64,000 bases of DNA from an uncultured Planctomycetia bacterium (lineage in GTDB: Bacteria > Omnitrophota > Gorgyraeia > Duberdicusellales > 4484-171): contig CAZVRU010000001.1 in the NCBI GenBank assembly GCA_964629785.1, positions 34,018-98,017 of the forward strand, read 5' to 3'. The notes under the pieces were generated by a model. It was not told where the DNA came from. It did no database searches and saw only the letters and a list, made by a program, of their open reading frames with translations. The position numbers and the translations under genes are program-made. Shown one piece after another: positions 8,175 through 30,680 of the stretch (its first letter is position 1; each line of letters starts with the position of its first letter).

Positions 8175-9860
8175 TCAGGAAAAGACCTCTTCCCGGCGGT
8201 CTTTCTCTTTTTTATGCGTCGTCCAGCGCATTTCGCTGAGCACGCCCTGGGCAATATTGGTAAGATGATCGCCGATCTTCTCGAAATTATCGACCAGATC
8301 AAGAAAGACGATCCCTGACTTCAGGTTGCACTGTCCGTTATTCAAACGGTTGACATGAGCTTTTTTCAGGTCGGTCTGAAGACGGTTGATGCGTTCTTCG
8401 CGCTGCAGGACGCTCTGGGCCAGGTCAAGATCGTTCTGCTGGAACGACTGCCTGGTTTCAATCATCATCCGGTGCAATTCGTCCCACATCCCGCTCAGCT
8501 CACCGCAGGCCTCGTCAGTAAAAGGGAGGTTCTCATCGACCCGGCGTTCCAGGGATTCGACGATATTTTCGGCGTGATCGCCGATCCGCTCGATATCGTT
8601 TACGCTGTGCAATAATACCGGCAATGACTCAGACTGTTCTTCGGAAAGGTTGCGCTGGGACAGTTCGATCAGATAATGGGTTATTTCCGACTGAAGATTG
8701 TCCACGGCATCTTCGATCTCATTGACCCGCCGGATCACTTTTATATTTTTTTCCAGAAAAGCTTTTACGGCCAGGGATACGGAACGCGAGGCCAGCTCCA
8801 GCATGCGGACCGACTCACGGCGGGCCTGTTCCAGAGCGATAGGCGGAGTATCGAGAAGATGTCTTTCCAGATACTGAGCGCCGGGCTCGATCGCTCCTTT
8901 GCGGGTCGGCACCAGCATCACCGACATCTTTTCCAGAAAAGACAAAAAAGGAAGAAAAATAACCGCATTGGCTACTTTAAATACGCTGTTAGCCACGGCA
9001 ATATAGAACATGATGTTCTTCAGAGTGACCGAACCGGGAATAATAAAATCGATGAACCGGACAAACCATCCGGTATAAACAAAAATAAGCATATAGGCAA
9101 CGCCGACTACATTGAACAGGGTATGGGACATCGCGGCCCGCCGGGCATTGCGGTTGGTGCCGATGGCTGCCAGCTGGGCAGTGATCGTGGTACCGATATC
9201 GCCTCCCAGTATCAATGGTATGGCCGCCGGAAAAGATATCAGTCCGTTAAAGGCCATAACCTGGATAACGGCGATAGTCGCGCTGGAGCTCTGTAAAAGC
9301 ATGGTAAAGGCCATGCCCACCACCACCCCCAGAAGCGGATCGCTGCCGAAAGAAAGAAAAAGCTGTTTTATATGCTGGCTCTGCTGCAGGGGGGCAAAAG
9401 CGTCCTTCATAAACCCCAGGCCTATGAACAACATGCCGAAACCCATAATTATCTGGCCCAATGATTTGGAATTACGGGTCTTGCCCAGAGCATTGACAAT
9501 GACCCCGATACCCACTGCCGGAAGGGCGTACTGAGTAATATTGAATACCGACATCGAAGAAACAAGCCAGGCCGTAAAGGTGGTACCGATGTTGGCACCG
9601 ATAATGACGCTGATAGCCTGGCGCAGGGCCAGAAGTCCGGCATTGACAAAACCGATGACCATTACGCTGGTAGCGCTGGAAGACTGGATAAAACAGGTGA
9701 CTGCCGCGCCGACCATAATGCCCATGAGCGGTATACGGGTCATCATATGCAGGATGTTCTTGAGACGGGTGCCGGCGATTTTTTTAAGACCGTCGGACAT
9801 TACCTGCATGCCGAAGAAAAAAAATCCCAGACCGCCGATCAGATAAAAAATCAATTGCAT
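8175..9860 (-). CDS. Na/Pi cotransporter family protein with C-terminal PhoU-like repeats (paralog 2)
   Basis: MQLIFYLIGGLGFFFFGMQVMSDGLKKIAGTRLKNIL..., two SSSAT-containing Na_Pi_cotrans repeats, and C-terminal NDIERIGDH / NFEKIGDH PhoU motifs. The ORF track starts at GTG 9869. I prefer ATG 9860 because both paralogs then begin MQLIF. Confidence 0.85.
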   Translation of the reverse strand: MQLIFYLIGGLGFFFFGMQVMSDGLKKIAGTRLKNILHMMTRIPLMGIMVGAAVTCFIQSSSATSVMVIGFVNAGLLALRQAISVIIGANIGTTFTAWLVSSMSVFNITQYALPAVGIGVIVNALGKTRNSKSLGQIIMGFGMLFIGLGFMKDAFAPLQQSQHIKQLFLSFGSDPLLGVVVGMAFTMLLQSSSATIAVIQVMAFNGLISFPAAIPLILGGDIGTTITAQLAAIGTNRNARRAAMSHTLFNVVGVAYMLIFVYTGWFVRFIDFIIPGSVTLKNIMFYIAVANSVFKVANAVIFLPFLSFLEKMSVMLVPTRKGAIEPGAQYLERHLLDTPPIALEQARRESVRMLELASRSVSLAVKAFLEKNIKVIRRVNEIEDAVDNLQSEITHYLIELSQRNLSEEQSESLPVLLHSVNDIERIGDHAENIVESLERRVDENLPFTDEACGELSGMWDELHRMMIETRQSFQQNDLDLAQSVLQREERINRLQTDLKKAHVNRLNNGQCNLKSGIVFLDLVDNFEKIGDHLTNIAQGVLSEMRWTTHKKEKDRREEVFS

Positions 9861-9953
9861 GGAAGACACCTGTGTTCAAACATTACCGGGGAAAAGAAGG
9901 CAGGAATTAACCATATTGGAAAAATATTTGAATATCCGCAATTCATTCGGGAT

Positions 9954-10021: not shown

Positions 10022-11686
10022 TCAGCTCAGATCATGTTTATGAAGTTTCCAGCGCATTTTGCCGATCACGCCTTCGGCAATATTGGTAAGATGATCGCCG
10101 ATCTTCTCGAGATTATCGATAAAATCTATGAATACCACTCCGGCCCTGAGATCGCAGCACGCTTTGCCCAGGCGATCGACATGGGCTTTTTTCAGTTCTT
10201 TCTGAAGCAGGTTGATCTTCTTTTCCCGGGACAAAACGCTCTGAGCTGCCCGGATATCGTTCTTTTTCAAGGCGATCCGGGTCTCGATACACATGCTGTG
10301 CAGTTCGTTCCACATCAAAGTCGCTTCCTGAAGCGCTTCATCGCTGAACTGAAGCTTCTCATCGATGGCCCGCTCGGCAAGTTCGACTATATTTTCCGAA
10401 TGATCGCCGATCCGCTCGATATCGTTTACGCTGTGCAAAAGTACCGGTAATGATTCGGAATATTCCGGAGAAAGATTATTCTGAGACAGTTCGACCAGAT
10501 AACAGGTGATCTCAGACTGAAGGCTGTCCACTGCTTCCTCCAGTTCCGGGATCTGCTTGAACAATCCCGACTGCCTTTCCAGAAAACTTTTTACCGCAGT
10601 GGACACCGAGGTAGTGGCTAAACCGAGCATCCTCACCATTTCTTTAACTGCCTGTTCCAGAGCTATCGCCGGCGTATTCAAAAGATGGCGTTCCAGGAAC
10701 TGAGGTTTAAGTTCCACTGCCCCTTTCTTTTTCGGGACCAGAATAACAGTCGCTTTTTCGATAAATCCAAGAAAAGGCAGAAACACCAGCGTGTTGGTCA
10801 CATTAAAAACGCTATGGGCCACGGCAATATAAAACATAACATTTTTCAGTGTGATACTGCCGGGAATAAGCATATCCACTGCCTTGACAAACCAGCCGCT
10901 ATAAACAAAACCCAGCATATACGCAGTACCGATCACATTGAACAGAGTATGGGACATGGCCACCCGCCGGGCATTGGTATTGGCACCGGCTGCGGCGATC
11001 TGGGCAGTTATAGTGGTACCGATATTATCTCCCAGTATCAGCGGGATGGCTGCCGGGAAAGAGATCAATCCGTTAAAAGCCAGTACCTGGACAATAGCAA
11101 TGGTAGCGCTGGAACTCTGCAGAAGCATGGTGGCGACGGTTCCCACCAGCACTCCCAGAAGCGGATTGCGGGCAAAACTGACAAAAAGCTCCTGGAGATG
11201 GGGGCTGTCACGCAGCGGTTCAAAAGCGTCTTTCATCATGCTCAGGCCCAGAAACAGCATTCCGAAGCCCATCAGCACCTGGCCCCAGAAACGTACGCTC
11301 TTCCTCCTGGCGAAGGTCAAAGTAAAAAACCCGATACCGATAGCCGGCAAAGCATAATGCGTAATCTTGAACACCGACATCGAGGAGACAAGCCAGGCCG
11401 TAAAGGTGGTACCGATATTGGCGCCCATGATCACGCTGATAGCCTGGCGCAGAGAAACAAGGCCGGCATTGACAAAACCGATGACCATGATGCTGGTAGC
11501 GCTGGAAGACTGGATAAAACAGGTGACTGCCGCGCCGACCAGTACGGCTATCAGCGGGACTCTGGTCATCATATGCAGGATATTCTTCAGGCGGGTGCCG
11601 GCGATCTTTTTAAGACCGTCGGACATTGTCTGCATACCGTAAAAGAAAAGGCCTAATCCTCCGATAAGAAAAAATATAAGCTGCAT
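10022..11686 (-). CDS. Na/Pi cotransporter family protein with C-terminal PhoU-like repeats (paralog 1)
   Basis: MQLIFFLIGGLGLFFYGMQTMSDGLKKIAGTRLKNIL... It has the same architecture as 8175-9860. The ORF-track start at 11713 is a TTG codon, and ATG 11686 aligns with the paralog. Confidence 0.85.
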   Translation of the reverse strand: MQLIFFLIGGLGLFFYGMQTMSDGLKKIAGTRLKNILHMMTRVPLIAVLVGAAVTCFIQSSSATSIMVIGFVNAGLVSLRQAISVIMGANIGTTFTAWLVSSMSVFKITHYALPAIGIGFFTLTFARRKSVRFWGQVLMGFGMLFLGLSMMKDAFEPLRDSPHLQELFVSFARNPLLGVLVGTVATMLLQSSSATIAIVQVLAFNGLISFPAAIPLILGDNIGTTITAQIAAAGANTNARRVAMSHTLFNVIGTAYMLGFVYSGWFVKAVDMLIPGSITLKNVMFYIAVAHSVFNVTNTLVFLPFLGFIEKATVILVPKKKGAVELKPQFLERHLLNTPAIALEQAVKEMVRMLGLATTSVSTAVKSFLERQSGLFKQIPELEEAVDSLQSEITCYLVELSQNNLSPEYSESLPVLLHSVNDIERIGDHSENIVELAERAIDEKLQFSDEALQEATLMWNELHSMCIETRIALKKNDIRAAQSVLSREKKINLLQKELKKAHVDRLGKACCDLRAGVVFIDFIDNLEKIGDHLTNIAEGVIGKMRWKLHKHDLS

Positions 11687-11730
11687 GGTATCGCTGCTCT
11701 TTCCGGTCGGCAACTCAAGGCAGACCAGCT

Positions 11731-13728: not shown

Positions 13729-13754
13729 TATGCCGTTTTCCGATAACCGGTCAC

Positions 13755-14858
13755 TCAGCGAACATCCTTCTTTCTAAAGATCCTGCTCAGGGGATCCACG
13801 GCAGTGAACACGCTCTTGGCTTCCGGCGGCATCGTCTCTGATTTACCGATGATCAGATATCCGTCCTGGTTCAAAGCATTATAAAATTTATCCAGGATCT
13901 GTTCCTGAAGAGGTTTGGTGAAATAGATAAATACATTGCGGCAAAGGATCAGATCCGCATTACTGATATAAGGAGAGGAGGTCAGGTCCAGATACTGGAA
14001 TTTTACCATGGACTTTAAGCGGTCACTGACGCAGTAACAATCGCCTTTCAGGGAAAACCAGTCAAGAACACTGGTCAGACTATTACTGCCTTCGGCATGT
14101 TCGATTGCTTTGTCGATGATCGTCCCGTTGTACTCTCCTTTCCGGGCTATCTCCAGGCATCCCCGGTCCACGTCAGTGGCATGGATAGTACAGGGCTGGG
14201 TCAATTCCGGACAACCTCTGACCAGCATGGCCAGAGAATAAGGTTCCTGCCCCCGGGCGCAGCCTGCGCTCCAGATGGTCAGCGGCCGGGAAACCCGGTT
14301 GGAAAGAGAAACAAGTTCTTTAATGATCTTTTCAATCACTTTCCAGACTTCGGGATCCCGGAAAAAATCAGAGACATTTATGGTCAGCACATTGAACAAT
14401 TTTTCATACTCGCCCGGATCGGCATGAAGTATCCGCAGATAATCGACATAGGATCGCGCGCCGCTGGCTACCAGGCGCAAAGCGAAACGGCGTTTAAGGA
14501 TATTCCTGAAATACTGGCTGAAATCCACGCCTCTGTCCCTGCGTATCTGCTCGAGCAGATGGTCGAAGGCATTTTCCTGATCTTCTTCCAGAGGATGGGG
14601 AGGATTGGTACTTACATATTCGATCGTTTTTTTGATCGCCGCGTATATAGCCCCGGAATGCTCTTTGACCAGACAGGACTGGATCGACAGCAACCGAGGA
14701 GAATCGCTGTCGGCATAACAGGGCGGGAAAGCCGTCACCAGTCGCACCAGCATAGTCTGACGGCACTGCTGGCAGGTACAGATATCGAACTTCAAAGCCA
14801 GACTTCTTTCCAGAAAATCAGCCAGAACCAGCTCCATTACATTTATCTGTCTGCCCAT
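13755..14858 (-). CDS. cheR: CheR-type protein-glutamate O-methyltransferase with an extra N-terminal ComFB-like domain
   Basis: 367 aa. Residues ~1-90 (nt ~14583-14858) carry the ComFB pattern DICTCQQCRQTMLVRLVTAFPPCY. Then follow a CheR N-domain (FSQYFRNILKRRFALRL...YLRIL) and a SAM-methyltransferase domain (FFRDPEVW, IWSAGCARGQEPYSLAM, ILCRNVFIYF). Confidence 0.8.
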   Translation of the reverse strand: MGRQINVMELVLADFLERSLALKFDICTCQQCRQTMLVRLVTAFPPCYADSDSPRLLSIQSCLVKEHSGAIYAAIKKTIEYVSTNPPHPLEEDQENAFDHLLEQIRRDRGVDFSQYFRNILKRRFALRLVASGARSYVDYLRILHADPGEYEKLFNVLTINVSDFFRDPEVWKVIEKIIKELVSLSNRVSRPLTIWSAGCARGQEPYSLAMLVRGCPELTQPCTIHATDVDRGCLEIARKGEYNGTIIDKAIEHAEGSNSLTSVLDWFSLKGDCYCVSDRLKSMVKFQYLDLTSSPYISNADLILCRNVFIYFTKPLQEQILDKFYNALNQDGYLIIGKSETMPPEAKSVFTAVDPLSRIFRKKDVR

Positions 14859-17219: not shown

Positions 17220-17798
17220 TCAGGGATGGGCCTGGCCGGTTACTTTCTGCACATGAAAATGAACATAACCGCAAAGTGCCTGCCGGACCGTGGAAGGCGG
17301 CGGCACAGTGAAATAATTGGCGATCAAGGCCTGGGAAAGCTGATCAGTCAGTGTCCAGAGAGACAGCTGATCTTCAGCCAGATAAATAGTATTGGTCTGA
17401 GCCACATAAAGAGATGCTTCCCGGCAGGGACGGTCATAATAGGACCGGCTGAGTCCGTCGATATCCTCCTGGCCGGAGACAATGGTAATCGTCCCCTTAT
17501 ATTCGTACTCATGAATATCGAGAAGATCGGCTACTTCGAGCAGGATAGAATCGAGAGTCCTGCCCAGCAAAGTATGAATGTCCCGGCTGCCGGCCTGAAA
17601 AATATCGTCGGGCCTCAGAAAATGTTCATAATGAAGTTTTTCCAGGAAAAGATCAAGATTCATTCCGGCAGGGGCATTGATAGTAAAGTATTTCGACTGG
17701 ACGACCAGGGGCAAAGAAGTCCCCTCGGCTGCTGCCGGAGGCAGGAAAATATTCGCTGCCAGGATCATGCTTAACAAAACGACAACTGTTCTGTTCAT
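17220..17798 (-). CDS. Secreted or periplasmic protein of unknown function
   Basis: 192 aa with a signal peptide (MNRTVVVLLSMILAANIFLPPAAAEG). Its ATG overlaps the upstream stop (ATGA at 17795-17798). I recognise no family. Confidence 0.6.
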   Translation of the reverse strand: MNRTVVVLLSMILAANIFLPPAAAEGTSLPLVVQSKYFTINAPAGMNLDLFLEKLHYEHFLRPDDIFQAGSRDIHTLLGRTLDSILLEVADLLDIHEYEYKGTITIVSGQEDIDGLSRSYYDRPCREASLYVAQTNTIYLAEDQLSLWTLTDQLSQALIANYFTVPPPSTVRQALCGYVHFHVQKVTGQAHP

Positions 17799-18364
17799 AC
17801 CTTGAAAAAATCCAGTGAAGTATTTATCTGTTCAGCCAGGGACGATGCTTCGCTTTTACGTTCTTCCCGCAGGGAAAGATTATCCTCTTTCAGATAAGCA
17901 TAAAGACGGCCCCATTTTTCTTTGGTCTCGCTTTGCGTATTACGGACCGCCGAAGCCATTTCTTCCAGACTCCGGGCGATGTTCTGAAGCTGGTCATCGC
18001 CGCGGATATGAAAATCGGCAGCCAGATCACCCCGGGCCATTTTATCCACTTCTCTTTTCAGCCGGAACAAAGGCCCGGAAATCTTGTGCGAGGAAAAAAG
18101 AGTCAGAAAAAGGACTGCCGCCGCCGAAAAGACCGATACGATTATCAGGACCATGATCATTGCCGGCATGATAAAATCGGCCGTACGTTTGACCACCACC
18201 TGGGTATTTTCTATGGCCACGGTAGTGGAACCGCGGGAAAATAAAAACAGCCCTCCGCCTATCAACAGAGAAGAAACAATTACCAGCAGGCCGAATTTAA
18301 GTATAAAACCTGTCTGAAAATGGCGGTCGATAAAATAAGTTTTCCGTGCGTATTTCTTTTCCAT
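17795..18364 (-). CDS. Membrane protein with two TM segments and a HAMP domain but no recognisable output domain
   Basis: 189 aa. TM1 is LLVIVSSLLIGGGLFLF and TM2 is IMVLIIVSVFSAAAVLFLTLF. The HAMP-like segment is ISGPLFRLKREVDKMARGDLAADFHIRGDDQLQNIARSLEEM, followed by a short helical tail. Confidence 0.65.
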   Translation of the reverse strand: MEKKYARKTYFIDRHFQTGFILKFGLLVIVSSLLIGGGLFLFSRGSTTVAIENTQVVVKRTADFIMPAMIMVLIIVSVFSAAAVLFLTLFSSHKISGPLFRLKREVDKMARGDLAADFHIRGDDQLQNIARSLEEMASAVRNTQSETKEKWGRLYAYLKEDNLSLREERKSEASSLAEQINTSLDFFKV

Positions 18365-23127: not shown

Positions 23128-23655
23128 TCAGTATTCGATGCCTTCCCGGGCCCGGACGCCTCGGTCAAAAGGATGTTTTTCTTTGACAATGACGCTCAGA
23201 TAATCAGCCAGATGGCACAGCTCAGGCGGGGCAGTTCTGCCGGTCATTATTATTTCGGTCCGGGAAGCTTTTTTAATAAGCTTTTTCAGACGAGCCAGAC
23301 TGCAGAATCCCTGGTCCAGGCTGTTCAGTATCTCGTCGAGAACAATCACCTCATATCTATTTTTTTCCAGAAATTTTTCGATCTTATCCAGGGCCGCGGC
23401 AGTGGAAGCGCGTATTTCTTTCTTTTTAAACGGCAGTTTCCCCTGCTGAAAAAGAGGATGTATCTGATGAGAAAATCTTTCGATTTTCAGGGGAAGACGG
23501 CAACTGGCCAGGGCTTTGATAAAACCGCTGGGAATATTCCGGCCCTTTAAGAACTGGGCTACATATACTTTTTTGCCGAATCCCGCAGCCCGCAAGGCCA
23601 GGCCCAGGGCAGCAGTGGTCTTCCCCTTGCCGTCTCCTATATAAAAATGGACCAT
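23128..23655 (-). CDS. cobO: ATP:cob(I)alamin / cob(I)yrinic acid a,c-diamide adenosyltransferase (CobO/CobA/BtuR family)
   Basis: 175 aa. P-loop YIGDGKGKTTAALGLALRAAG, then VAQFLKG, LDEILN, and C-terminal HPFDRGVRAREGIEY. Its 5' end overlaps the upstream gene by 19 nt. Confidence 0.85.
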   Translation of the reverse strand: MVHFYIGDGKGKTTAALGLALRAAGFGKKVYVAQFLKGRNIPSGFIKALASCRLPLKIERFSHQIHPLFQQGKLPFKKKEIRASTAAALDKIEKFLEKNRYEVIVLDEILNSLDQGFCSLARLKKLIKKASRTEIIMTGRTAPPELCHLADYLSVIVKEKHPFDRGVRAREGIEY

Positions 23656-24143
23656 TGTCTCACTATCTCCGGAATAACCATGCTCAACACCGTCACTATC
23701 CCTCCGGCGATCATCACGCCCAGGAAAATAGCCGTAAACGCTTTTTTGGTATCAAGTTCGACCAGAGTCGCAGCCACGCTTCCGGTCCATGCTCCAGTGA
23801 CCGGCAACGGTATGGCTACGAACATGACCAGGCCCCAGAACCCCCAGGTCCGTACTGCTGTTGAACGTCTTTCCACTGCCGAAAACCACCAGCGGAAAAA
23901 AGACCCGACGAATCTGATCCCGGTGAGCCGGTGGAAAAAATATCGGAAAAAAAGAAGCAGCGGTATCACCGGAGCCAGGTTGCCCAGTAAAGCCAGAAAA
24001 TATGTCCTGAGCGGCGGCAGATGGAATGACACTATGCCCACCGGTATTGCCAGTCGTAATTCGAATACCGGCAGCATTCCCATCAATGACACTGCCAGAT
24101 CTTTAGGCAGTCCGTTTATCCAGTTATAAAGCTCTGCGATCAT
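23637..24143 (-). CDS. Small polytopic membrane protein (COG2426-like putative small multidrug export protein family)
   Basis: Four or five hydrophobic segments. LPVFELRLAIPVG resembles the family motif. The start is uncertain: the ORF track uses TTG 24167, which lies inside the heptamer array. I prefer ATG 24143. Neither has a clear Shine-Dalgarno sequence. Confidence 0.55.
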   Translation of the reverse strand: MIAELYNWINGLPKDLAVSLMGMLPVFELRLAIPVGIVSFHLPPLRTYFLALLGNLAPVIPLLLFFRYFFHRLTGIRFVGSFFRWWFSAVERRSTAVRTWGFWGLVMFVAIPLPVTGAWTGSVAATLVELDTKKAFTAIFLGVMIAGGIVTVLSMVIPEIVRQWSIFI

Positions 24144-24150
24144 AAACAGT

Positions 24151-24213
24151 CGATAGCCAATGGTCAATAGTCACAAATAGCGTTTAGCGGATAGCGGTTA
24201 GGGTCTAGGGCGC
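24151..24213. repeat. Degenerate 7-bp tandem repeat array (about 9 units)
   Basis: cgatagc|caatggt|caatagt|cacaaat|agcgttt|agcggat|agcggtt|agggtct|agggcgc. The first units resemble the array at 22964-22998. Confidence 0.7.
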
Positions 24214-24334: not shown

Positions 24335-24354
24335 CCGCATCCTTCCGTACTTTT

Positions 24355-24392
24355 GAAATTCGAACGATTAGAATAATAGGACTTCGAATTTC
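24355..24392. promoter_or_regulatory. Perfect 10-bp inverted repeat (candidate operator or AT-rich hairpin)
   Basis: GAAATTCGAA (24355-24364), 18 nt spacer, TTCGAATTTC (24383-24392). Confidence 0.5.
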
Positions 24393-24430
24393 ATCTCCCG
24401 ATGAATTGTGTACAATTTTCGGGACTTAAA

Positions 24431-24458
24431 CCCCGAGAATCTGAAAGATTCCTCGGGG
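24431..24458. other. Long stem-loop in the pcm-downstream gap
   Basis: CCCCGAGAATC-tgaaa-GATT(C)CTCGGGG, 11 bp with one bulge. The 5' arm can alternatively pair with TCGGG at 24419-24423. There is no clear T-run on either strand. Confidence 0.55.
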
Positions 24459-24557
24459 CCGATAAGCTGCGGAAAAATATCGTATATATTGTTTCCGCTA
24501 TTCAGGCGCATCGGGGTTCCTTTTGCCTTTTTCCTTTTTACTTGCCGAGACAGGCGG

Positions 24558-25208
24558 CTATGTTTCGAACCCGTATTTACCGAGAAGCGGCACGAATACG
24601 CACCAGCCCAGAGAGCTCTGCGTGTATTCATCGGCAGTGATCCTGTCCAGGCAGATCAGCTGCTGTTCTACCCTGTCACCTATCGGAATGATCATCCGGC
24701 CCGGACAGCCTAACTGCTTTTTCAAAGGTGCCGGAACTTCAGGCGCCGCAGCACTGACAATTATCTTATCAAAAGGAGCTTTTTCTTCCCAGCCCTGGCT
24801 GCCGTCGCCCTGAATGAGCGACGCTTTAAGCCGCAATTCGTCTAAAACCTCCCGGGCCCGGGAAACAAGACCGGAAACAAGCTCGACACTGAATAGCGAG
24901 GCCTGCATAAAAGCCAGCAAAGCGGTCTGATAACCGCTGCCGGCGCCCACTTCCAGGACTTTATCCCCCGGCTTTATTTCCAGGACTTCCAGCATCAAGG
25001 CCACTATGTACGGCTGGGAGATGGTCTGTCCCCAGCCAATGGGCAAAGGGCAATCGTCATAGGCCCGGCTCTGATCCTGAGGCAGGACAAACTTTTCGCG
25101 GGGTATTCCGCTGAAAGCCTCGAGCACCGACCGGTCGGTTATACCCCGGCCCCTGAGCTGATGCGCCACCATCTGCCGGCGATGCACAGCGAAATCATTT
25201 TTTATCAT
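24558..25208 (-). CDS. pcm: Protein-L-isoaspartate O-methyltransferase
   Basis: 216 aa. GQTISQPYIVALMLE, VLEVGAGSGYQTALLA, and C-terminal FVPLLG. Confidence 0.9.
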   Translation of the reverse strand: MIKNDFAVHRRQMVAHQLRGRGITDRSVLEAFSGIPREKFVLPQDQSRAYDDCPLPIGWGQTISQPYIVALMLEVLEIKPGDKVLEVGAGSGYQTALLAFMQASLFSVELVSGLVSRAREVLDELRLKASLIQGDGSQGWEEKAPFDKIIVSAAAPEVPAPLKKQLGCPGRMIIPIGDRVEQQLICLDRITADEYTQSSLGWCVFVPLLGKYGFET

Positions 25209-25863
25209 GTAGAAATAAAATAAATTTTATGAACCGCAGCGTATCGATTATAGGATTGATCTTGCTCTTTATGTCCTTGCGATAAATGCTGGCAACCGGA
25301 ACTGAGGTGATGGGTATTTTTTTTTCAGCAACCTTTATCAGGATTTCCGATTCTATCTGATAATTGTCGGTCTCGATGGACAGATCTTTCAAAATATCTT
25401 TTTTTATCAGCCGGAACCCGCACTGACTGTCGGGAATATACTGGCCGGTGATCCGGGAAATAAGCCAGGACATGAACCGATTAGTAACAATCCTGAGAAA
25501 CGGCATGCCGGAAGGATACTTCATGCGGTTGCCCACTACACAGGCCTCTCCCCGCCCGGCAGCATCCAGAAAAAGGTCGATGTCGGAAGGCGCATGCTGC
25601 AGGTCGCCGTCCATGATCAGGATAAAAAAACAATCTTCCCGGCCGAGTAAATAATCAATCCCCCGTTTTACGGAAAGGCCTTTGCCGCAGTTCTTCTCGT
25701 TGCGAAGCAGCACGGCATGGCTGTCCCTGGCAATACGGGCCGTGGCATCGGTAGACCCGTCATCTACCACTACCGCCGACAATCCTTTATCGCTGAGTTT
25801 GCATAAAAGTTCTCCCAGGGTTTTTTCTTCATTATACGCAGGTATAAGTACGCATACGTTCAT
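25195..25863 (-). CDS. Family 2 glycosyltransferase (polyprenyl-phosphate / dolichyl-phosphate sugar synthase-like)
   Basis: MNVCVLIPAYNEEKTLGELL..., VVDDGSTD, MDGDLQH. The start is moved from 25899 to ATG 25863, 2 nt after the upstream stop. Confidence 0.8.
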   Translation of the reverse strand: MNVCVLIPAYNEEKTLGELLCKLSDKGLSAVVVDDGSTDATARIARDSHAVLLRNEKNCGKGLSVKRGIDYLLGREDCFFILIMDGDLQHAPSDIDLFLDAAGRGEACVVGNRMKYPSGMPFLRIVTNRFMSWLISRITGQYIPDSQCGFRLIKKDILKDLSIETDNYQIESEILIKVAEKKIPITSVPVASIYRKDIKSKINPIIDTLRFIKFILFLHDKK

Positions 25864-25865
25864 GA

Positions 25866-26708
25866 TCAATCGATCCAGTATTTTTCGAATAGATACCACT
25901 GTTCAGGATAACGGGAAATCGCCTGGCCCAGGATCTCCGCGCATTCTTTTAAAAGCTGATTTTCACTTTTCTTTTTTCCCTCCTGGAAAGGTGAAGCAGG
26001 TTCACCGATGATCAGTCTGTAGAACATCCTGTCCTCGCGCACCATAAACACGGGAACGATCCAGGCGCCGGTCCGCGAGGCGATAGCAGCCGGCCCCCTG
26101 GGCATTACACAGGTCCTGCCCAACATATTGACTTTCCGGCCCCGGCCGAAAAAATCACGGTCACCGACAAAAGCCGTCAGTTTGCCGTCCTTCAGGGCCC
26201 GCAGACAATTTTTCAATCCGGCCCCGGTCTGGGCGACTTCCACGCCGCAGATATTGCGCTGATGATTAAAGAAATCGTTAAGTCTGCGGTCCCTGTGCGG
26301 CAAAGCCAGGGCACAGACATCATATCCCAGCACGCTTAAGACCACTGCTCCCAGCTCATAGTTGCCCAGGTGCGCCGAGAGCATGATTATCTTTTCCTTC
26401 CTGGCCAGTAGATCGTCCAGATGATTCAGACCGGTGGCAGTGACATAGCGGTCGATAAAAGATTTATCGATCCCGCTGAAACCGCAGAAATCGACCAGAT
26501 AATAGGCAAAATTATGGATCACCCGGCAGGCCGTCTGTTTCGACTTTTCCCTGTCGTTGATGAGCGGCATTAGATTGGCAGCGACGATATTCACATCTTT
26601 CCGGGCAAAGGTGGTTTTTATCCAGGAAAAAAAATCAGCAACCCGGTAACAAAAGGTCCGTGAGAAACTTTCGGCCAGCCATCTTGCAAACAGGAAAAGA
26701 TAATACAT
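25866..26708 (-). CDS. Lysophospholipid / lipid A-type acyltransferase (LpxL/HtrB/PatA family)
   Basis: 280 aa. SAHLGNYELG catalytic-region pattern (HxxxxE-like), FVGDRDF, and general similarity to lauroyl/myristoyl acyltransferases. Confidence 0.7.
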   Translation of the reverse strand: MYYLFLFARWLAESFSRTFCYRVADFFSWIKTTFARKDVNIVAANLMPLINDREKSKQTACRVIHNFAYYLVDFCGFSGIDKSFIDRYVTATGLNHLDDLLARKEKIIMLSAHLGNYELGAVVLSVLGYDVCALALPHRDRRLNDFFNHQRNICGVEVAQTGAGLKNCLRALKDGKLTAFVGDRDFFGRGRKVNMLGRTCVMPRGPAAIASRTGAWIVPVFMVREDRMFYRLIIGEPASPFQEGKKKSENQLLKECAEILGQAISRYPEQWYLFEKYWID

Positions 26709-26709
26709 T

Positions 26710-27825
26710 TTACTGTAAAAACTTTAGCACTACATTGGCAATACGTAAAGAAGAATCAACTATCGCCTGACGGGTGGCATTTTCTTTCTGGCAAACAAGT
26801 TCTTTCCGGTAGAGAAGGAGTTCGTCCAGGCATCGGGCGACATCACCTGTCTGACGGGCCCTGACCACGGCTTTCTTTTTTTCCAGATACGAGGCATTGA
26901 GCTCTTCCTGCCCGGGAATAGGGTTGACCACTATTGTGGCCATGCCCTTGGCCAGAGCTTCGGACACTGTCAGCCCGCCGCTTTTGGTCACGATAATGTC
27001 GGCAAAATCCATAAGTTTATTGACAAAATCTATATAGCCGAAGATAAAAAACTTTTTCCGGAAAGAATCCTGTTCTTTTTCCAGCCATTTGCGCAGTGCC
27101 GTATTTCTGCCGCAGACCACAATGACCTGAAAAAAACCGTCCAGCCTGTCCAGGACCCTGGCTATTTCCTCTATCGGTCCGATACCCAATCCTCCGCCCA
27201 TAAGCAGGACCGTGGGTATATCGCTGCGGAAAGCAAGCTCGGCAGCGATAATTTCCCGGCTGTGAGCAGTAAGGAATTTAACCGATATGGGAATACCCAG
27301 GACTTTGATCTTTTCTTCCGGTACCCCTTCCTTTATCAGCTTGCTGCGGGCTTCTTCACAGGCGACGATATAAATATCGACTGCGGGATGTATCCAGAAG
27401 CGATGCGGGTAATAATCAGTGACCACGGCGATCAAAGGGATGGTCACGTTATGATACTTTTTAAAATCGGCGATAATACCGCAGGGAAATGCCTGAGTGG
27501 CAACGATCACCTCCGGTTTATATTCGAAAAGCAGACGGGATATCCTGAACATGCCGACCCGGTTGGCAAAACGGTGCAGCGGATTAAGACCTCTGACAAC
27601 GCCTTTGCGGTCGTATAATGATCCCCAGAGAGCGGGGAAATGCTTGATTGTCTGGGTATAAAAGAAATTTACTACTTTTTCGGTGCGGGGGGTGATATAA
27701 CCGAACCCGTTGACCTCACGCACTTTTATATCGGCAGCGCGGTAGCGCAGGGCCTCGGCAATATTTTCACTGGCCTTTTTGTGGCCGCCGAATTGAGAAA
27801 TATGAAGGATAAGGACCCTGCTCAT
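26710..27825 (-). CDS. MGDG-synthase / UgtP-like diacylglycerol glycosyltransferase (GT28-type)
   Basis: 371 aa. N-terminal ILHISQFGGHKKASENIAEAL resembles the MGDG_synth N-domain. C-terminal TKSGGLTVSEALAKGMA matches the GT-B C-domain. Confidence 0.75.
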   Translation of the reverse strand: MSRVLILHISQFGGHKKASENIAEALRYRAADIKVREVNGFGYITPRTEKVVNFFYTQTIKHFPALWGSLYDRKGVVRGLNPLHRFANRVGMFRISRLLFEYKPEVIVATQAFPCGIIADFKKYHNVTIPLIAVVTDYYPHRFWIHPAVDIYIVACEEARSKLIKEGVPEEKIKVLGIPISVKFLTAHSREIIAAELAFRSDIPTVLLMGGGLGIGPIEEIARVLDRLDGFFQVIVVCGRNTALRKWLEKEQDSFRKKFFIFGYIDFVNKLMDFADIIVTKSGGLTVSEALAKGMATIVVNPIPGQEELNASYLEKKKAVVRARQTGDVARCLDELLLYRKELVCQKENATRQAIVDSSLRIANVVLKFLQ

Positions 27826-29003
27826 ACGTCTTTCAAGATCAAGCCGGCTTTGCAGAGTGTGAGGAATCCTTTTACCACTGTCGCGTCAAACTGTCTGCCG
27901 CTGTTCGATTTGATTATCTGTACTGCTTTTTGAACCGGAAATGCTTTGCGGTAGGAACGGTCGCTGGTCATGGCGTCAAAAGCGTCAGCCACGGCGATTA
28001 CCGAGGCAATAAGCGGTATCTGTCTGCCTTTAAGTCCTTCCGGATATCCTGTTCCGTCAGGCCGTTCATGATGACAGCGGACTGCCTTGATCACTTCTTT
28101 TAATTCTTTGATCGGCGCGAGGATATCTTCGCCGATAATCGGGTGTTTTTTTATCAGCTCATAATCCCGGTCATTAAGGGGGCTCTTTTTATTGAGTACG
28201 GCTTCCGGCACACCGATCTTACCGATATCATGAAGCAATGCCGCGATCTTAAGATTTTTCACGAACAATTCCCAGTTGGTCACCTTCCTCATTTTGCGCA
28301 ACTGTTCGGCGATCCGCAGCGAATATTCGGAAACACGCTGGGTATGCCCCATGGTATAAGTATCCTTGGCTTCGATCGCCTGGGCCAGGGCCGTAATAGT
28401 CTGAAGAAACAGCTCCTGATTGCGTTCCAGTTGTACACGCAGGTCTTCGAACAATGAGGCATTACGGATAGCCATGGCCACATCAGAAGAAAGGATGGAA
28501 AGAAAAGCCAGTTCTTCGGCACCTAAAGAACCGCCTTTTATCTTTTTGCCCAGAAATACCATTCCCAGGAGTTCATCGCGGAAAAAAATCGGCAGGGCCA
28601 CCCTGGCCTTATACATGATCAACTGATAAAGCAGGCTTTCCAGAAATGTCTTAAGTTCGGCATCGCCCTGTATTTTTTTGGTACGCAATATTTTCTGTAT
28701 CCGTTCGGCAATAAGAAAATTATCTTTCCATAAACGGCGGGCCTGGGTAGTGAAATACCTTACCAGCGGCGAAGAATCGGTGAGTTTGACCAGACCGGTA
28801 GGGATCTTCAGGCCGGCCTCGCCCCGTGAAACAGTAAGCACGTACGACTTACGTTCACGGTCATAAAGAAAAATACCGACATGGGAAACCTTGAGATTTC
28901 TGATGACAGTGCGGATAATAAGTTTTATCAGGGTATCGGTACGATGGATAAGAATCATCCGATGGGCCGCTTTTTCCAGCTCTTTACGGTATGATATTTT
29001 CAT
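27822..29003 (-). CDS. GAF domain plus HD-GYP domain protein (putative c-di-GMP phosphodiesterase)
   Basis: 393 aa. HD-GYP motifs GHTQRV, LLHDIGKIGVP, and HHERPDGTGYP. The N-terminal ~190 aa are GAF-like. Confidence 0.85.
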   Translation of the reverse strand: MKISYRKELEKAAHRMILIHRTDTLIKLIIRTVIRNLKVSHVGIFLYDRERKSYVLTVSRGEAGLKIPTGLVKLTDSSPLVRYFTTQARRLWKDNFLIAERIQKILRTKKIQGDAELKTFLESLLYQLIMYKARVALPIFFRDELLGMVFLGKKIKGGSLGAEELAFLSILSSDVAMAIRNASLFEDLRVQLERNQELFLQTITALAQAIEAKDTYTMGHTQRVSEYSLRIAEQLRKMRKVTNWELFVKNLKIAALLHDIGKIGVPEAVLNKKSPLNDRDYELIKKHPIIGEDILAPIKELKEVIKAVRCHHERPDGTGYPEGLKGRQIPLIASVIAVADAFDAMTSDRSYRKAFPVQKAVQIIKSNSGRQFDATVVKGFLTLCKAGLILKDV

Positions 29004-29015
29004 CTGGTTAAGGGA

Positions 29016-29381
29016 TTACTGGCCGGGCTGCAGATACTGACTGATAATCGAATCCAGCATTTCCAGTTCGATCGGTTTGACTAGATAATCATCAGCTCCC
29101 AGTTTCTTGGCCCGCATGATCGCCGGCTTATCTTCCCGGGCAGTGATCATTATCACCTTGGCGTCACTGTCGTTTTCACGGATCTTTTCCAGGACAAAAA
29201 ATCCGTCCTCACCGGGCATTCGCACATCGAGAAGCACAAGATGCGGACGTTCTTTTCCGAACATCTCCAGGGCCTGACGGGCATTGGTTGCCGTAAACAC
29301 TTCCGCGCCTTTGCGCCTGAGAAAATTCTTTAAAAAAGCAACGACCTCTACTTCATCGTCGACAGCAAGAACTTTTACCAT
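29016..29381 (-). CDS. Stand-alone response-regulator receiver domain (CheY-like)
   Basis: 121 aa. VLAVDDE, LVLLDVRMPGEDG, MITA, and K in DDYLVKP. A GGGAGG Shine-Dalgarno sequence is present. Confidence 0.9.
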   Translation of the reverse strand: MVKVLAVDDEVEVVAFLKNFLRRKGAEVFTATNARQALEMFGKERPHLVLLDVRMPGEDGFFVLEKIRENDSDAKVIMITAREDKPAIMRAKKLGADDYLVKPIELEMLDSIISQYLQPGQ

Positions 29382-29406
29382 TTTGTCCTCCCTTGTTGCA
29401 AAATTT

Positions 29407-29415
29407 ATTATAGCA
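29407..29415 (-). promoter_or_regulatory. Extended -10 promoter for the receiver-to-pcm operon
   Basis: On the minus strand: TGcTATAAT (29415-29407), about 25 nt upstream of the ATG at 29381. No clear -35 element. Confidence 0.4.
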
Positions 29416-29435
29416 TATTTTCGATGTTTTTGTGA

Positions 29436-30680
29436 TTAACTTCTTAAAAAAGAAGGCATTATTTCCGAAAGCGAAGGATGAAGAAAAACCGCCTCCTGCA
29501 GATCGGCAGAAGAGATATTCTGCCGTATGGCCAGGGAAAAAAGGCTTATTAACTCAGCGGCCCGGCGGGAAAGGATTGTCGCCCCCCGCAGTGCCCCTTT
29601 CTCGTCGATAAGGACTTTGACAAACCCCTGAACATCGCCATAAACATGGGCCGAAGAGAACCGGGCAAAGGATGATTGCTTTACCGTGACTTTTATCCCC
29701 TGCTGAGCGGCCTGAGATTCATCCAGCCCCACTCTGGCCAACTGCGGCAGGGTATAGACGCATTCCGGGATACCGCGATACTCGCAGGCTGATTCCCGGC
29801 CGGCAATAGTATTCACGCAGCAGCGGGCCTGATATTCGGCAAGATAAGCATACATCTTTTCGGATGCGACATCGCCGCAGGCAAATATATGGGGAACCTC
29901 GCTGCGCATCAACCTGTCCACTTTTATCCGGCCGGCGGCATCGGGAGTTATACCGGCTGCGGAAAGTTTAAGGTCCTTTACCACCGATTTTCTGCCGGCA
30001 GCCAAAAGAACTATGTCATAGTCGTCCGTCTCTCCCGGCGAGAAACAGGCCGATGTTTTTATCCGGATACCGTCTTTTTCCAGAAGTTGGCGCAGCCGCT
30101 GCACGAGCCGCTGGTCGAATCCGGAAAGGATACGATCTTCTTTTTCCATCACCGTTACTGCACGGCCCAATCGCTTTAAAAGGCAGGCTATCTCCATACC
30201 GATGGCCCCGCCCCCGACGATACCCACCCGCTGAGGGATATCCGGCAGGGAAAATATTTCTTCGGCAAAAAATATCTTTTTCCTGTCCGGAAGACAGGGA
30301 GCCACAGGCAGCGAACCTGTAGCTATAAGGATATTGGTTGCCTCGATCTTTTTTGAATCGACGACAAGGGAACGGGGGCCGCTGAATTCGGCCTGTCCCC
30401 AGACTATATCCAGACCCGCTTGTTTCAGATAAGACAGTACCGCCTTTTTGAACCCGGTTACCAGATCGTCTTTTGCTTTTTTCAGTTCGGAAATCGGAGA
30501 AAGCGCCGCCTGGCTTCTTTCCAGATAGAATTTGGTGGGAATGCACCCTTGGTTAAGGCATACCCCGCCGAAAGAAGGTTTCCCCCTTTCGATCAGGATC
30601 GTTTTAAGTTTTCGGGCCCGAGCCTGTTTTGCGGCTTCGATCCCGGCCGCACCGGCACCGATTATAGCGAGGTCATACAT
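29436..30680 (-). CDS. Class I pyridine nucleotide-disulfide oxidoreductase (dihydrolipoyl dehydrogenase / glutathione reductase-like, short form)
   Basis: 414 aa. IIGAGAAGIEAA, redox-active GGVCLNQGCIPTK, second Rossmann motif VGIVGGGAIGMEIA, and C-terminal HPSLSE. Confidence 0.75.
   Translation of the reverse strand: MYDLAIIGAGAAGIEAAKQARARKLKTILIERGKPSFGGVCLNQGCIPTKFYLERSQAALSPISELKKAKDDLVTGFKKAVLSYLKQAGLDIVWGQAEFSGPRSLVVDSKKIEATNILIATGSLPVAPCLPDRKKIFFAEEIFSLPDIPQRVGIVGGGAIGMEIACLLKRLGRAVTVMEKEDRILSGFDQRLVQRLRQLLEKDGIRIKTSACFSPGETDDYDIVLLAAGRKSVVKDLKLSAAGITPDAAGRIKVDRLMRSEVPHIFACGDVASEKMYAYLAEYQARCCVNTIAGRESACEYRGIPECVYTLPQLARVGLDESQAAQQGIKVTVKQSSFARFSSAHVYGDVQGFVKVLIDEKGALRGATILSRRAAELISLFSLAIRQNISSADLQEAVFLHPSLSEIMPSFLRS

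Follow-up and report, generated by a model that had tools for sequence, protein, structure and literature searches.

A receiver and GAF-HD-GYP gene pair joined to an envelope-lipid module in Candidatus Omnitrophota: a possible composite operon

The Firmicutes lipoteichoic acid pathway (UgtP/YpfP-LtaA with CsbB/GtrB) employs a UgtP-type GT28 glycosyltransferase (9wde), a GtrB/CsbB-like polyprenyl-phosphate GT2 and a small or medium-sized membrane protein that is possibly a lipid translocator, and is directed to the envelope. These features are shared by a locus found in an uncultured bacterium of Candidatus Omnitrophota, in a 64,000 nt stretch of DNA (the window). However, the host here belongs to a diderm candidate phylum and no LtaS, LtaA (MFS), GtcA or YfhO was seen. 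The part of translocator would fall to a PF06695 protein of the DedA superfamily, an acyltransferase of PatA/LpxL type is inserted, and HD-GYP signalling genes are in what is probably the same transcript.

In the mycobacterial PIM operon (pgsA1-patA-pimA), too, a GT-B lipid glycosyltransferase is encoded together with an LpxL-family acyltransferase that has no membrane anchor. PatA acylates the sugar of a glycolipid, the role predicted here, and is the best solved match of the acyltransferase. However, the glycosyltransferase is a GT28 with a predicted diacylglycerol acceptor, whereas the mycobacterial PimA is a GT4 enzyme acting on phosphatidylinositol. No PI synthase is present here, and the acyltransferase gives 98 bits with the PatA NCBIfam model, for which the cut-off is 209. 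In the ArnC/ArnT system a polyprenyl-phosphate GT2 is likewise tied to DedA-superfamily proteins, the C55-P flippases PA4029 and DbcA (PMC12893004), but the GT2 of this locus is without the C-terminal TM helices of ArnC, ArnA, ArnB, ArnD and ArnT are absent, and the partner, PF06695, is a remote branch of the superfamily.

With respect to signalling, PmGH of Persephonella marina displays the same GAF-HD-GYP architecture and complete HD-GYP motif set, and RpfG (REC-HD-GYP) has a receiver partner as well, which here is a separate gene. In contrast to both, the best solved match is V-cGAP3, which is 3′3′-cGAMP-specific, and no cognate kinase for the receiver was found within the window. The Bcs cellulose, Pel and Pga operons combine glycosyltransferase genes with c-di-GMP signalling genes in one locus, as is the case here. 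However, their synthases carry a c-di-GMP receptor domain (PilZ or degenerate GGDEF), none of which is detectable on the enzymes of this locus, and their product is a secreted polymer, whereas a lipid is predicted here. No paper describing the present arrangement was found in the literature, in agreement with the preliminary description, made from the sequence alone, which did not recognise it as a described system.

The locus lies on the minus strand and consists of the following, in order of transcription:

29407–29436, minus strand: promoter-like site, weak -35 ATCACA, 18 nt spacer, extended -10 TGCTATAAT
29016–29381, minus strand: receiver (REC), stand-alone, 121 aa
27822–29003, minus strand: GAF-HD-GYP protein, class II cyclic-dinucleotide phosphodiesterase type, 393 aa
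26710–27825, minus strand: GT28 glycosyltransferase, UgtP/MGD (MGDG_synth) type, 371 aa
25866–26708, minus strand: acyltransferase, PatA/LpxL family, 280 aa
25195–25863, minus strand: GT2, polyprenyl-phosphate glycosyltransferase type (DPM1/GtrB/ArnC-like), catalytic domain only, 222 aa
24558–25208, minus strand: pcm, protein-L-isoaspartate O-methyltransferase, 216 aa
24429–24460, minus strand: hairpin about 100 nt past the pcm stop, possible weak intrinsic terminator
23637–24167, minus strand: PF06695 (Sm_multidrug_ex) membrane protein, DedA superfamily, usual fourth member of the lipid module

The six open reading frames from the receiver to pcm were recovered in the ORF list of the window with the coordinates and junctions given in the preliminary description, i.e. 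a 12 nt gap, a 4 nt overlap, a 1 nt gap, a 2 nt gap and a 14 nt overlap, and the protein names given there agree with the Pfam and NCBIfam assignments. The mechanical GT2 reading frame opens at GTG 25899, but ATG 25863 is preferred; it is backed by 17 orthologues, which share an invariant M1 and the N-terminal consensus MKxWVLIPAYNE. Three parts make up the unit: a signalling cassette (receiver and GAF-HD-GYP), a lipid module and pcm.

The six genes look like a single transcription unit, as had been proposed. Tight packing alone is weak evidence, since 23 of the 57 other same-strand junctions in the window (~40%) are also 14 nt or less. Genes of this genome often overlap at their junctions. 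The extended -10 (29415–29407) lies upstream of the receiver gene, whose ATG is preceded by a GGGAGG Shine-Dalgarno sequence, and the single promoter expected there has its counterpart at the matching position in the loci of eight relatives: an extended -10 TGGTATAAT in L003 and L005, TGATATAAT in L087, TGTTATAAT in L164, and TTTACC-N17-TGATAATAT in L082, L085, L088 and L091. The element is conserved ahead of the receiver gene. At the other end, the stable hairpin past pcm has a delta G = −25.2 kcal/mol (z = −3.63) and a weak U tract, UUU only; it was not called in a scan for consensus terminators. The PF06695 gene displays a promoter-like site of its own, TTGACC-17-TATGAT, at 24167–24139.

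The receiver (PF00072, 106.6 bits) and its orthologues keep the acidic pocket (DD), the phospho-acceptor D and the T and K positions. The GAF-HD-GYP protein gives 130.6 bits for HD_5 and 26.8 bits for GAF_2, the latter slightly under cut-off, and a profile of its N-terminal 195 aa matches only GAF domains in the PDB. All HD-GYP motifs, both metal-binding and GYP, are intact, and 13 of 13 orthologues show the HD and HHExxDGxGYP motifs unchanged. The nearest solved relatives are V-cGAP3 (1e-40) and PmGH (2e-36). In each of the 20 contigs examined, the receiver gene immediately precedes the GAF-HD-GYP gene, and no fusion of the two was found among 120 close homologues. Neither the window nor the enzymes showed a GGDEF cyclase, PilZ or another receptor domain. 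A ComFB domain, a c-di-NMP receptor (PMC12448109), is encoded in the same window.

The pair is a self-contained cassette. In 4 of 8 contexts seeded with the cassette (L166, L167, L168 and L171) it is found away from the GT28-acyltransferase-GT2 trio; in L166 and L171 its neighbour is a 7TM-GAF histidine kinase, with a PilZ protein also present in L166. An NJ tree does not place all of these separate cassettes in one paralogue clade.

Catalytic motifs are conserved in all components, and the three lipid enzymes all score under the NCBIfam equivalog cut-offs. The GT28 protein contains PF06925 (94.7 bits) and PF04101, and matches UgtP (9wde, 9e-39) and MGD1 (4wyi, 3e-26) among solved structures, with a weak, C-terminal match to MurG; the NCBIfam diglucosyl-DAG synthase model gives 218 bits (cut-off 500). 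The acyltransferase (PF03279, 121.7 bits) carries the motif H113-x4-E118; none of 19 aligned orthologues departs from it, and in a set of 38 at least 85% retain it. A search of its N-terminal end found no hydrophobic segment or membrane anchor. Its family profile is equidistant from PatA (2.6e-24) and LpxM (7e-22), and the sequence does not separate it from the lipid A acyltransferases LpxL/LpxM. The GT2 protein (PF00535, 85.4 bits; NCBIfam AglJ 7.5e-34 and PpgS 1.5e-23) matches, with its family profile, the solved polyprenyl-phosphate glycosyltransferases PfDPMS (8.5e-25), GtrB (1.6e-18) and ArnC (4e-16) across the entire catalytic domain. The motifs DDGS.D, D.D.QH, GNRM and DxQCGF are conserved and no TM segment was found; nor does the block encode a GT-C transferase to use a polyprenyl-phosphate sugar.

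These matches bear on whether the enzymes serve lipopolysaccharide and not a diacylglycerol glycolipid, which we consider improbable. The LpxL-family protein would then be a late acyltransferase of lipid A, the GT28 would attach a sugar that is lipid-linked or part of the core, the ArnC-like GT2 would make a polyprenyl-phosphate sugar for lipid A/core modification, and the DedA-like protein would supply C55-P. The near-equal LpxM match and the several lipid A acyltransferase models among the NCBIfam matches are consistent with this, as are the presence of LPS transport in Omnitrophota (LptD in L081) and the requirement of ArnC/ArnT lipid A modification for DedA flippases (PMC12893004). However, the GT28 is a full-length UgtP/MGD-type enzyme, PF06925 N-domain included, the acyltransferase is without the LpxL/LpxM N-terminal anchor, and other lpx, waa and arn genes are absent from the block. 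To our knowledge, the characterised UgtP/MGD-type members use diacylglycerol, which also speaks against a lipopolysaccharide role.

The preliminary description ended the block at pcm. The six genes stand, but the conserved block usually runs on into the PF06695 gene (126.5 bits), which was overlooked and which usually completes the lipid module as its fourth gene. In the genome of the window 390 nt separate it from pcm upstream, and in 18 relatives it comes directly after pcm or GT2; in the Elusimicrobiota locus L019 it follows the acyltransferase, and in L010 a VTT/DedA PF09335 protein takes its place. DedA-family proteins are translocators of lipids and C55-P (PMC12893004, PMC11474028, PMC10193950), and PF06695 is a remote, uncharacterised branch of the superfamily (bioRxiv 10.1101/2020.12.18.423352). 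Pcm (PF01135, 189 bits) is above the NCBIfam equivalog cut-offs (217 vs 188 and 194.9 vs 159). Some relatives have its gene between GT2 and PF06695; others (L012, L084, L085, L088 and L090–L092) lack it, and in these GT2 is directly followed by the PF06695 gene. We judge pcm to be a facultative passenger, not a member of the pathway.

The same order of genes is seen in many independent contigs. GT28-acyltransferase-GT2 is kept by every Omnitrophota-like locus whose sequence is long enough to tell, in the clades of ~50–57% and of ~40% identity alike, and a GT28-acyltransferase pair is also found in Elusimicrobiota. Of 24 close Omnitrophota loci, 20 have an HD-GYP gene immediately ahead of GT28; in 12 it belongs to the receiver and GAF-HD-GYP pair, and in 8 further ones it encodes a second, different HD-GYP protein. 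The proposed linkage of signalling and lipid genes is thus conserved, though not in all relatives.

It is nevertheless conceivable, if rather unlikely, that cassette and lipid genes are unrelated neighbours. The cassette, a c-di-GMP turnover module controlling something else, would have landed upstream of a housekeeping lipid operon and been inherited in a compact, highly syntenic genome, and co-transcription would have no specific regulatory meaning. The four contexts with the cassette apart from the trio are in line with this. So are the loci in which the trio has no HD-GYP gene at all (L004/L081, L008, L089 and the entire clade of ~40% identity) and a 120–230 nt gap between HD-GYP and GT28 in L082, L085 and L088. 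Conservation and packing may reflect descent and genome compaction, because synteny takes in unrelated downstream genes (CobO, Nfn, GDH and GS) and some 40% of the other same-strand junctions in the window are equally tight. Against this, two different HD-GYP families occupy the position directly upstream of GT28, and the HD-GYP/GT28 ATGA overlap recurs (window, L001, L002, L087, L164, L169 and L170). Moreover, the receiver/HD-GYP/trio block persists across at least three different upstream contexts: next to an E3-like oxidoreductase, next to a TPR/OMP-like protein of 890 aa, or at the dcw cluster end.

The last context could point to a module that is primarily an accessory to cell division or the cell wall, where a UgtP-like protein would couple sugar-nucleotide supply to division, as in Bacillus, with the HD-GYP proteins as division-linked regulators. 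The dcw cluster is immediately upstream in L081, L082, L163, L169, L170, L008 and L089; FtsQ and an FtsA-like gene directly precede the module at the dcw end in many relatives, and a 381-aa upstream protein shows a weak SHS2_FTSA match. But the window and its closest relatives have the block behind TCA-cycle genes and away from dcw, and the strictly conserved catalytic motifs of all three enzymes argue for enzymatic roles. We know of the UgtP moonlighting role only in Bacillus, and regard division as a very improbable main function. In E. coli, lpxC is also at the dcw cluster end, which counts towards the lipopolysaccharide reading.

Our preferred reading, held tentatively, is a composite operon in which one transcript carries the cassette and an envelope-lipid module. 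The layout of the locus, the intact motifs and the repeated occurrence of the arrangement are observations, while substrates, product and regulatory link are deduced. The ComFB domain in the window counts in favour of this reading; the absence of a GGDEF cyclase, of receptor domains on the enzymes and of a GT-C transferase, the scores under the equivalog cut-offs and the likeness of the acyltransferase to LpxL/LpxM count against it. The receiver and phosphodiesterase would stand first in the unit, behind the conserved extended -10. Going by family membership, GT28 would act on the inner side of the cytoplasmic membrane and transfer a hexose from a UDP-sugar to diacylglycerol, and the anchor-less acyltransferase would add an acyl chain to the glycolipid, like PatA on PIM. 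GT2 would load a sugar onto polyprenyl phosphate for decoration at the outer face, and the PF06695 protein would translocate the lipid product or recycle the polyprenyl-phosphate carrier. The acylated glycosyl-diacylglycerol product and the c-di-GMP control are proposed by analogy, the lipid product not being identifiable in silico. That signalling is functionally coupled to glycolipid synthesis is plausible only, because cassette and trio also occur separately, gene order in this phylum is conserved over long range and tight packing is common in this genome. With one shared transcript, the cell would produce the enzymes along with a cyclic-dinucleotide hydrolase controlled by phosphorylation and ligand, and a link at the protein level is possible too. 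Glycolipid output may thereby be tied, at the level of expression, to second-messenger state.

The preliminary description had placed six adjacent minus-strand genes in one operon, and all six open reading frames, their coordinates, strand and junctions are confirmed in the window. Every family name given there also holds in Pfam and NCBIfam searches. The block and its flanking elements are listed here.

Features of the block and its flanks (window coordinates)
29415-29407, promoter-like TGCTATAAT with a poor -35 and a GGGAGG ribosome-binding site
29016-29381, minus strand, open reading frame, receiver (REC)
27822-29003, minus strand, open reading frame, GAF-HD-GYP, 393 aa
26710-27825, minus strand, open reading frame, GT28
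25866-26708, minus strand, open reading frame, acyltransferase
25195-25863, minus strand, open reading frame, GT2, ATG start at 25863
24558-25208, minus strand, open reading frame, pcm
24429-24460, stable hairpin about 100 nt 3′ of pcm, -25 kcal/mol, z = -3.6, weak U tract
23637-24167, PF06695 gene, 390 nt 3′ of pcm, with a promoter-like TTGACC-17-TATGAT of its own

The junctions are, in order, a 12 nt gap, a 4 nt overlap (ATGA), a 1 nt gap, a 2 nt gap and a 14 nt overlap. As mechanically called, the GT2 open reading frame starts at GTG 25899; orthologue alignment favours the ATG at 25863. An extended -10 element precedes the receiver gene across lineages with differing upstream neighbours. 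The block is embedded in a 35-kb minus-strand gene run. Of the 57 other junctions between same-strand genes in the window, 23 do not exceed 14 nt either. Tight packing is a trait of this compact genome and not of the block alone.

The 390-nt spacer between pcm and the PF06695 gene also holds a perfect 11-nt inverted repeat (24354-24364 / 24383-24393). In relatives the PF06695 gene is found directly after pcm, with gaps of 5-45 nt or overlaps. A search with Rfam at gathering thresholds gave zero matches across the whole window, this spacer included.

The closest homologues of the GT28 and the HD-GYP protein are all from Candidatus Omnitrophota MAGs, and the window is core genome. One side of the block carries S4-rpoA-L17, an aminotransferase, a PilT-like ATPase, IDH, MDH and an E3-like oxidoreductase; a ribosomal-protein and rpoBC cluster before S4-rpoA-L17 was assigned by open reading frame sizes only. 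The other side carries the PF06695 gene, CobO, an Nfn-like pair and GDH. Elsewhere the window displays a tandem paralogous pair of Na/Pi-cotransporter-PhoU fusion genes (8175-9869 and 10022-11713) and a 723 aa Na+/H+ exchanger fused to a C-terminal PTS EIIA-2 domain (3134-5305).

Gene contexts were drawn from homologues of the window GT28. These consist of 80 GT28-seeded loci from species-representative genomes and 80 from metagenomes, onto which the window proteins were mapped (L-numbers designate relatives' loci or contigs). The order GT28-acyltransferase-GT2, the trio, is found in every Omnitrophota-like locus with enough downstream sequence, and spans a close clade with GT28 50-57% identical and a distant clade with about 40% identity. 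The GT28-acyltransferase pair is also found in several Elusimicrobiota loci. GT28 homologues from Acidobacteria, Firmicutes and Proteobacteria (31-36% identity) show no adjacent acyltransferase, GT2 or HD-GYP gene. With the order kept in all judgeable Omnitrophota-like loci and the neighbours missing in distant phyla, the trio thus forms a stable core. The downstream order PF06695-CobO-Nfn-GDH-GS is common to the window and CP070797, and these genes are functionally unrelated; since synteny extends to such genes, conservation alone is weak evidence of function in Omnitrophota.

Several loci display additional genes around the trio. In L011 a "23S rRNA-intervening sequence protein" gene (PF05635, 11995-12354) splits the acyltransferase from the GT2 in an otherwise conserved trio. 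The distant Omnitrophota clade (L013 12636-13310; L014, L016, L100) carries after the trio a conserved protein of about 224 aa, followed by DUF1844; the protein has an N-terminal hydrophobic stretch and no Pfam match, and is TonB-C-like by eye. Upstream of the trio this clade has IDH, LplA/B and a lipoyl-carrier-like gene. In L050, L079, L125, L129 and L133, of Acidobacteria or Eisenbacteria type, a CobO/BtuR-like P-loop gene is found 200-500 nt after a distant GT28 and is 26-33% identical to window 23128-23655. The window, too, has CobO downstream of the trio, there at a distance of three genes.

In 18 loci the PF06695 gene comes after pcm or, in those lacking pcm, right after GT2. The profile scores 126.5 bits on window 23637-24167 (cut-off 30.7), and a simple hydropathy scan shows three hydrophobic segments, as in a multi-pass membrane protein. 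In L019, from Elusimicrobiota, the PF06695 gene comes after the acyltransferase. An iterative search for PF06695 beside GT28 outside Omnitrophota found L019 as the sole case, so that the cross-phylum link rests on one locus. In L010 a VTT/DedA (PF09335) protein (13747-14370) occupies the PF06695 slot after pcm, which is a displacement within the same DedA superfamily. PF06695 is a remote DedA-superfamily branch without a characterised member (bioRxiv 10.1101/2020.12.18.423352), and those superfamily members that have been characterised are translocators of undecaprenyl phosphate or phospholipid (PMC11474028, PMC12893004, PMC10193950). By analogy the PF06695 protein is a putative translocator, lipid or polyprenyl-phosphate activity being established for the DedA/VTT branches only.

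Pcm itself scores above equivalog cut-offs (NF001453, 217.2 bits vs 188; TIGR00080, 194.9 vs 159). The gene is present in the window, L001-L003, L005, L006, L008-L011, L082, L089, L101, L163, L164, L169 and L170, and missing from L012, L084, L085, L088, L090-L092 and the distant clade. It is facultative.

The GT28 has the two domains of an MGDG synthase, an N-terminal MGDG_synth domain (PF06925, 94.7 bits, cut-off 25) and a GT28 C-terminal domain (PF04101, 40 bits). Full-length alignments link it to UgtP (9e-39) and plant MGD1 (3e-26), whereas MurG aligns only weakly and C-terminally. Scores against the NCBIfam diglucosyl-diacylglycerol synthase equivalogs are below the cut-offs (217.9 bits vs 500; 168.7 vs 557). 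By its sequence the protein is a distant UgtP/MGD-family member and not an equivalog. The known characterised members of this family glycosylate diacylglycerol, and by analogy the predicted substrates are diacylglycerol and a UDP-hexose.

The acyltransferase gives 121.7 bits with PF03279, and H113 and E118 of its H-x4-E motif are invariant in 19 orthologues. NCBIfam scores are 98 bits vs 209 for the PatA model and 86 vs 248 for the LpxL model. Assignment as PatA-like or LpxL/M-like by family profile failed, the scores being too close to separate (PatA 89.5 bits, LpxM 81.5 bits). A hydropathy scan found no N-terminal hydrophobic segment of the kind that anchors LpxL/LpxM; in lacking this anchor the acyltransferase is PatA-like.

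The GT2 profile aligns over the full GT-A catalytic domain with PfDPMS (8.5e-25, positions 1-192), GtrB (1.6e-18) and ArnC (4e-16), and with other GT2 enzymes over about 110 residues only, in the nucleotide-binding half. The D(A/G)DLQH and downstream DxxxGF motifs of polyprenyl-phosphate glycosyltransferases are conserved. The 222 aa protein shows no hydrophobic segment and is thus without the C-terminal transmembrane helices of GtrB, ArnC and archaeal DPMS. NCBIfam scores are 83 bits vs 370 for PpgS and 117 vs 325 for AglJ. By these alignments the GT2 belongs to the polyprenyl-phosphate glycosyltransferase group and is, like DPM1/PpgS, free of transmembrane segments. There is no GT-C transferase in the block.

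In a second, less probable reading of these genes the module would serve LPS, with the acyltransferase as the late acyltransferase of lipid A and with an Arn-like GT2/DedA pair. Matches to solved structures, by sequence and by profile, establish the folds of the proteins. The most economical model is an acylated glycosyl-diacylglycerol, a polyprenyl-phosphate sugar and a translocator. A glycosyl-diacylglycerol would be made and then acylated, a polyprenyl-phosphate sugar would be supplied for outer-face decoration, and the DedA-superfamily partner would act as translocator for the lipid or its carrier.

The receiver gene is directly upstream of the GAF-HD-GYP gene in 20 of 20 contigs examined. 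The receiver (PF00072, 106.6 bits) retains in its orthologues the acidic-pocket DD, the phospho-acceptor D52 and the T and K residues of two-component receivers. The HD-GYP domain is complete (PF13487, 130.6 bits), with GHTxRV, HDIGK, HPxxG, HHExxDGxGYP and ADxxDAM invariant or almost invariant across 13 orthologues. Among solved structures the protein is closest to V-cGAP3 (cGAMP) and PmGH (c-di-GMP; GAF-HD-GYP), and by family motifs it is a predicted cyclic-dinucleotide phosphodiesterase. The N-terminal domain gives 26.8 bits with GAF_2 (cut-off 28.6). In the PDB a family profile of this domain picks up GAF domains only (best 9e-5), with just the C-terminal half aligned, and many orthologues have precomputed GAF matches. 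Over 120 cluster representatives are 49-70% identical to the 393-aa protein along its whole length, and a receiver (PF00072) is fused to none of the 120 best homologues, which measure 383-419 aa. An RpfG-type REC-HD-GYP identity was rejected, the receiver being a separate 121-aa gene and the NosR-family model giving 139 bits vs a cut-off of 400.

Rosetta-stone fusions (REC/GAF-HD-GYP, HD-GYP/GT28, GT28/acyltransferase) are absent among the 120 best homologues of the GT28 or the HD-GYP. Apparent GT28-acyltransferase "fusions" in L028 and L102 are artefacts of a greedy ORF picker; the genes are in different frames. No cyclic-di-GMP receptor domain was detected on the enzymes or in the window, and a motif search found no GGDEF gene in the window or the Omnitrophota loci; the single motif match, inside an FtsA-like protein, is spurious. 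The window does encode a CheR methyltransferase with an N-terminal ComFB domain (13755-14858). ComFB is a c-di-NMP receptor family, and the ComFB-CheR architecture has been reported for Omnitrophota (PMC12448109). Nearby are an MCP and a small HAMP-domain protein (6214-7599, 17795-18364), and this neighbourhood suggests a cyclic-dinucleotide input into a chemotaxis-like system.

Enough upstream sequence was available for 24 close GT28-seeded loci, and in these the gene before GT28 was counted.

Genes upstream of GT28 in 24 close loci
12 of 24, receiver and GAF-HD-GYP (the cassette), directly upstream
8 of 24, a different 444-aa HD-GYP protein (EHH...GYP kept), directly upstream
4 of 24, HD-GYP gene missing

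Of the 12 loci with the cassette, 7 also carry the 444-aa HD-GYP at a more distant upstream position. Both HD-GYP genes are missing from the distant clade. The block is intact with an E3-like oxidoreductase upstream of the receiver in the window, L003, L005 and L164, and with an 890-aa TPR/OMP-like protein there in L002. It is also intact after the end of the dcw cluster, behind Ddl-FtsQ-FtsA-like genes with or without a 643-aa protein and the 444-aa HD-GYP, in L010, L012, L082, L163, L169 and L170.

The dcw cluster in many Omnitrophota ends with FtsQ, an FtsA-like protein of about 383 aa (weak SHS2_FTSA match), a protein of about 643 aa without a Pfam match, and the 444-aa HD-GYP (L006 360-4781, L082 3705-8136, L169 126-4542, L010 3530-8055). 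The two last-named proteins seem related at their N-termini. FtsZ was not seen at this position in these loci. Enlarged spacers between HD-GYP and GT28 in L085 (4953-5080) and L088 (9771-10000) contain repeated GC-rich elements, e.g. GAACCC.GCCCTTCCAG and GGAGGAAGGGC.GG, suggestive of small inserted repeats.

When contexts were seeded with the HD-GYP, the cassette was found away from any GT28 in four of eight distinct contexts, a sample biased toward non-adjacency because three of the four were picked for sharing no contig with GT28 matches.

Cassette contexts with no GT28
L166, PilZ, 7TM-GAF histidine kinase, REC, HD-GYP, REC
L171, GAF histidine kinase, REC, HD-GYP
L167, PMT_2/TPR GT-C, REC, HD-GYP, MGMT, LplA/B
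L168, REC, HD-GYP, SLT, MGMT, LplA/B

A rough NJ tree sets the kinase-linked pair apart as a separate clade and nests L167 and L168 next to the GT28-adjacent L001 and L002. These contexts and the nesting together indicate that the association of cassette and trio is evolutionarily labile. The second-messenger-controlled glycolipid operon suggested in the preliminary description is supported in part: adjacency of cassette and GT28 recurs in half of the close loci, and the cassettes found elsewhere speak against obligatory coupling.

A histidine kinase of about 730 aa, of the 7TM-GAF type, lies immediately before the cassette in L166 (2767-7591) and L171 (2282-6188). Kinases of this type are candidates for the cognate partner of the window's "orphan" receiver.

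Searches of the literature turned up no account of this gene set or of glycolipid operons linked to HD-GYP; they covered the glycolipids of Omnitrophota, HD-GYP in combination with glycolipids, PF06925 together with PF03279, and c-di-GMP, LPS or diacylglycerol in Omnitrophota. The preliminary description had likewise not recognised the arrangement as a known system. Its parts resemble the UgtP/LtaA and CsbB-type branch of lipoteichoic acid synthesis, the patA-pimA operon, ArnC with DedA flippases, and PmGH and RpfG, but the block is not a full member of any of these systems. It is a conserved, uncharacterised envelope-lipid module that is frequently, not obligatorily, predicted to be co-transcribed with HD-GYP genes. 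The arrangement is real and recurrent; from it we infer the functional link and the lipid product.

The fullest form of the model is a speculative one, which we consider improbable as a whole. Omnitrophota, diderm bacteria with very small cells, would make a new acylated glycosyl-diacylglycerol lipid comparable to LTA anchors and PIMs. They would do so with a UgtP-like GT28, a PatA-like acyltransferase, a DPM1-like GT2 and a PF06695 translocator, encoded ancestrally at the end of the division/cell-wall cluster and gated by HD-GYP proteins. If true, this would be the first c-di-GMP-type control of membrane glycolipid synthesis and the first functional assignment for the PF06695 branch.

More generally, the operon would carry cyclic-dinucleotide control beyond secreted polysaccharides to the glycolipids of the membrane. 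For the uncharacterised PF06695 branch, which has chloroplast members too, it would suggest translocation of a glycolipid or polyprenyl-phosphate carrier as the function. All components can be expressed heterologously, so that the predictions are checkable without cultivation, and the module would offer a first testable handle on the envelope-lipid biology of an uncultured, widespread phylum.
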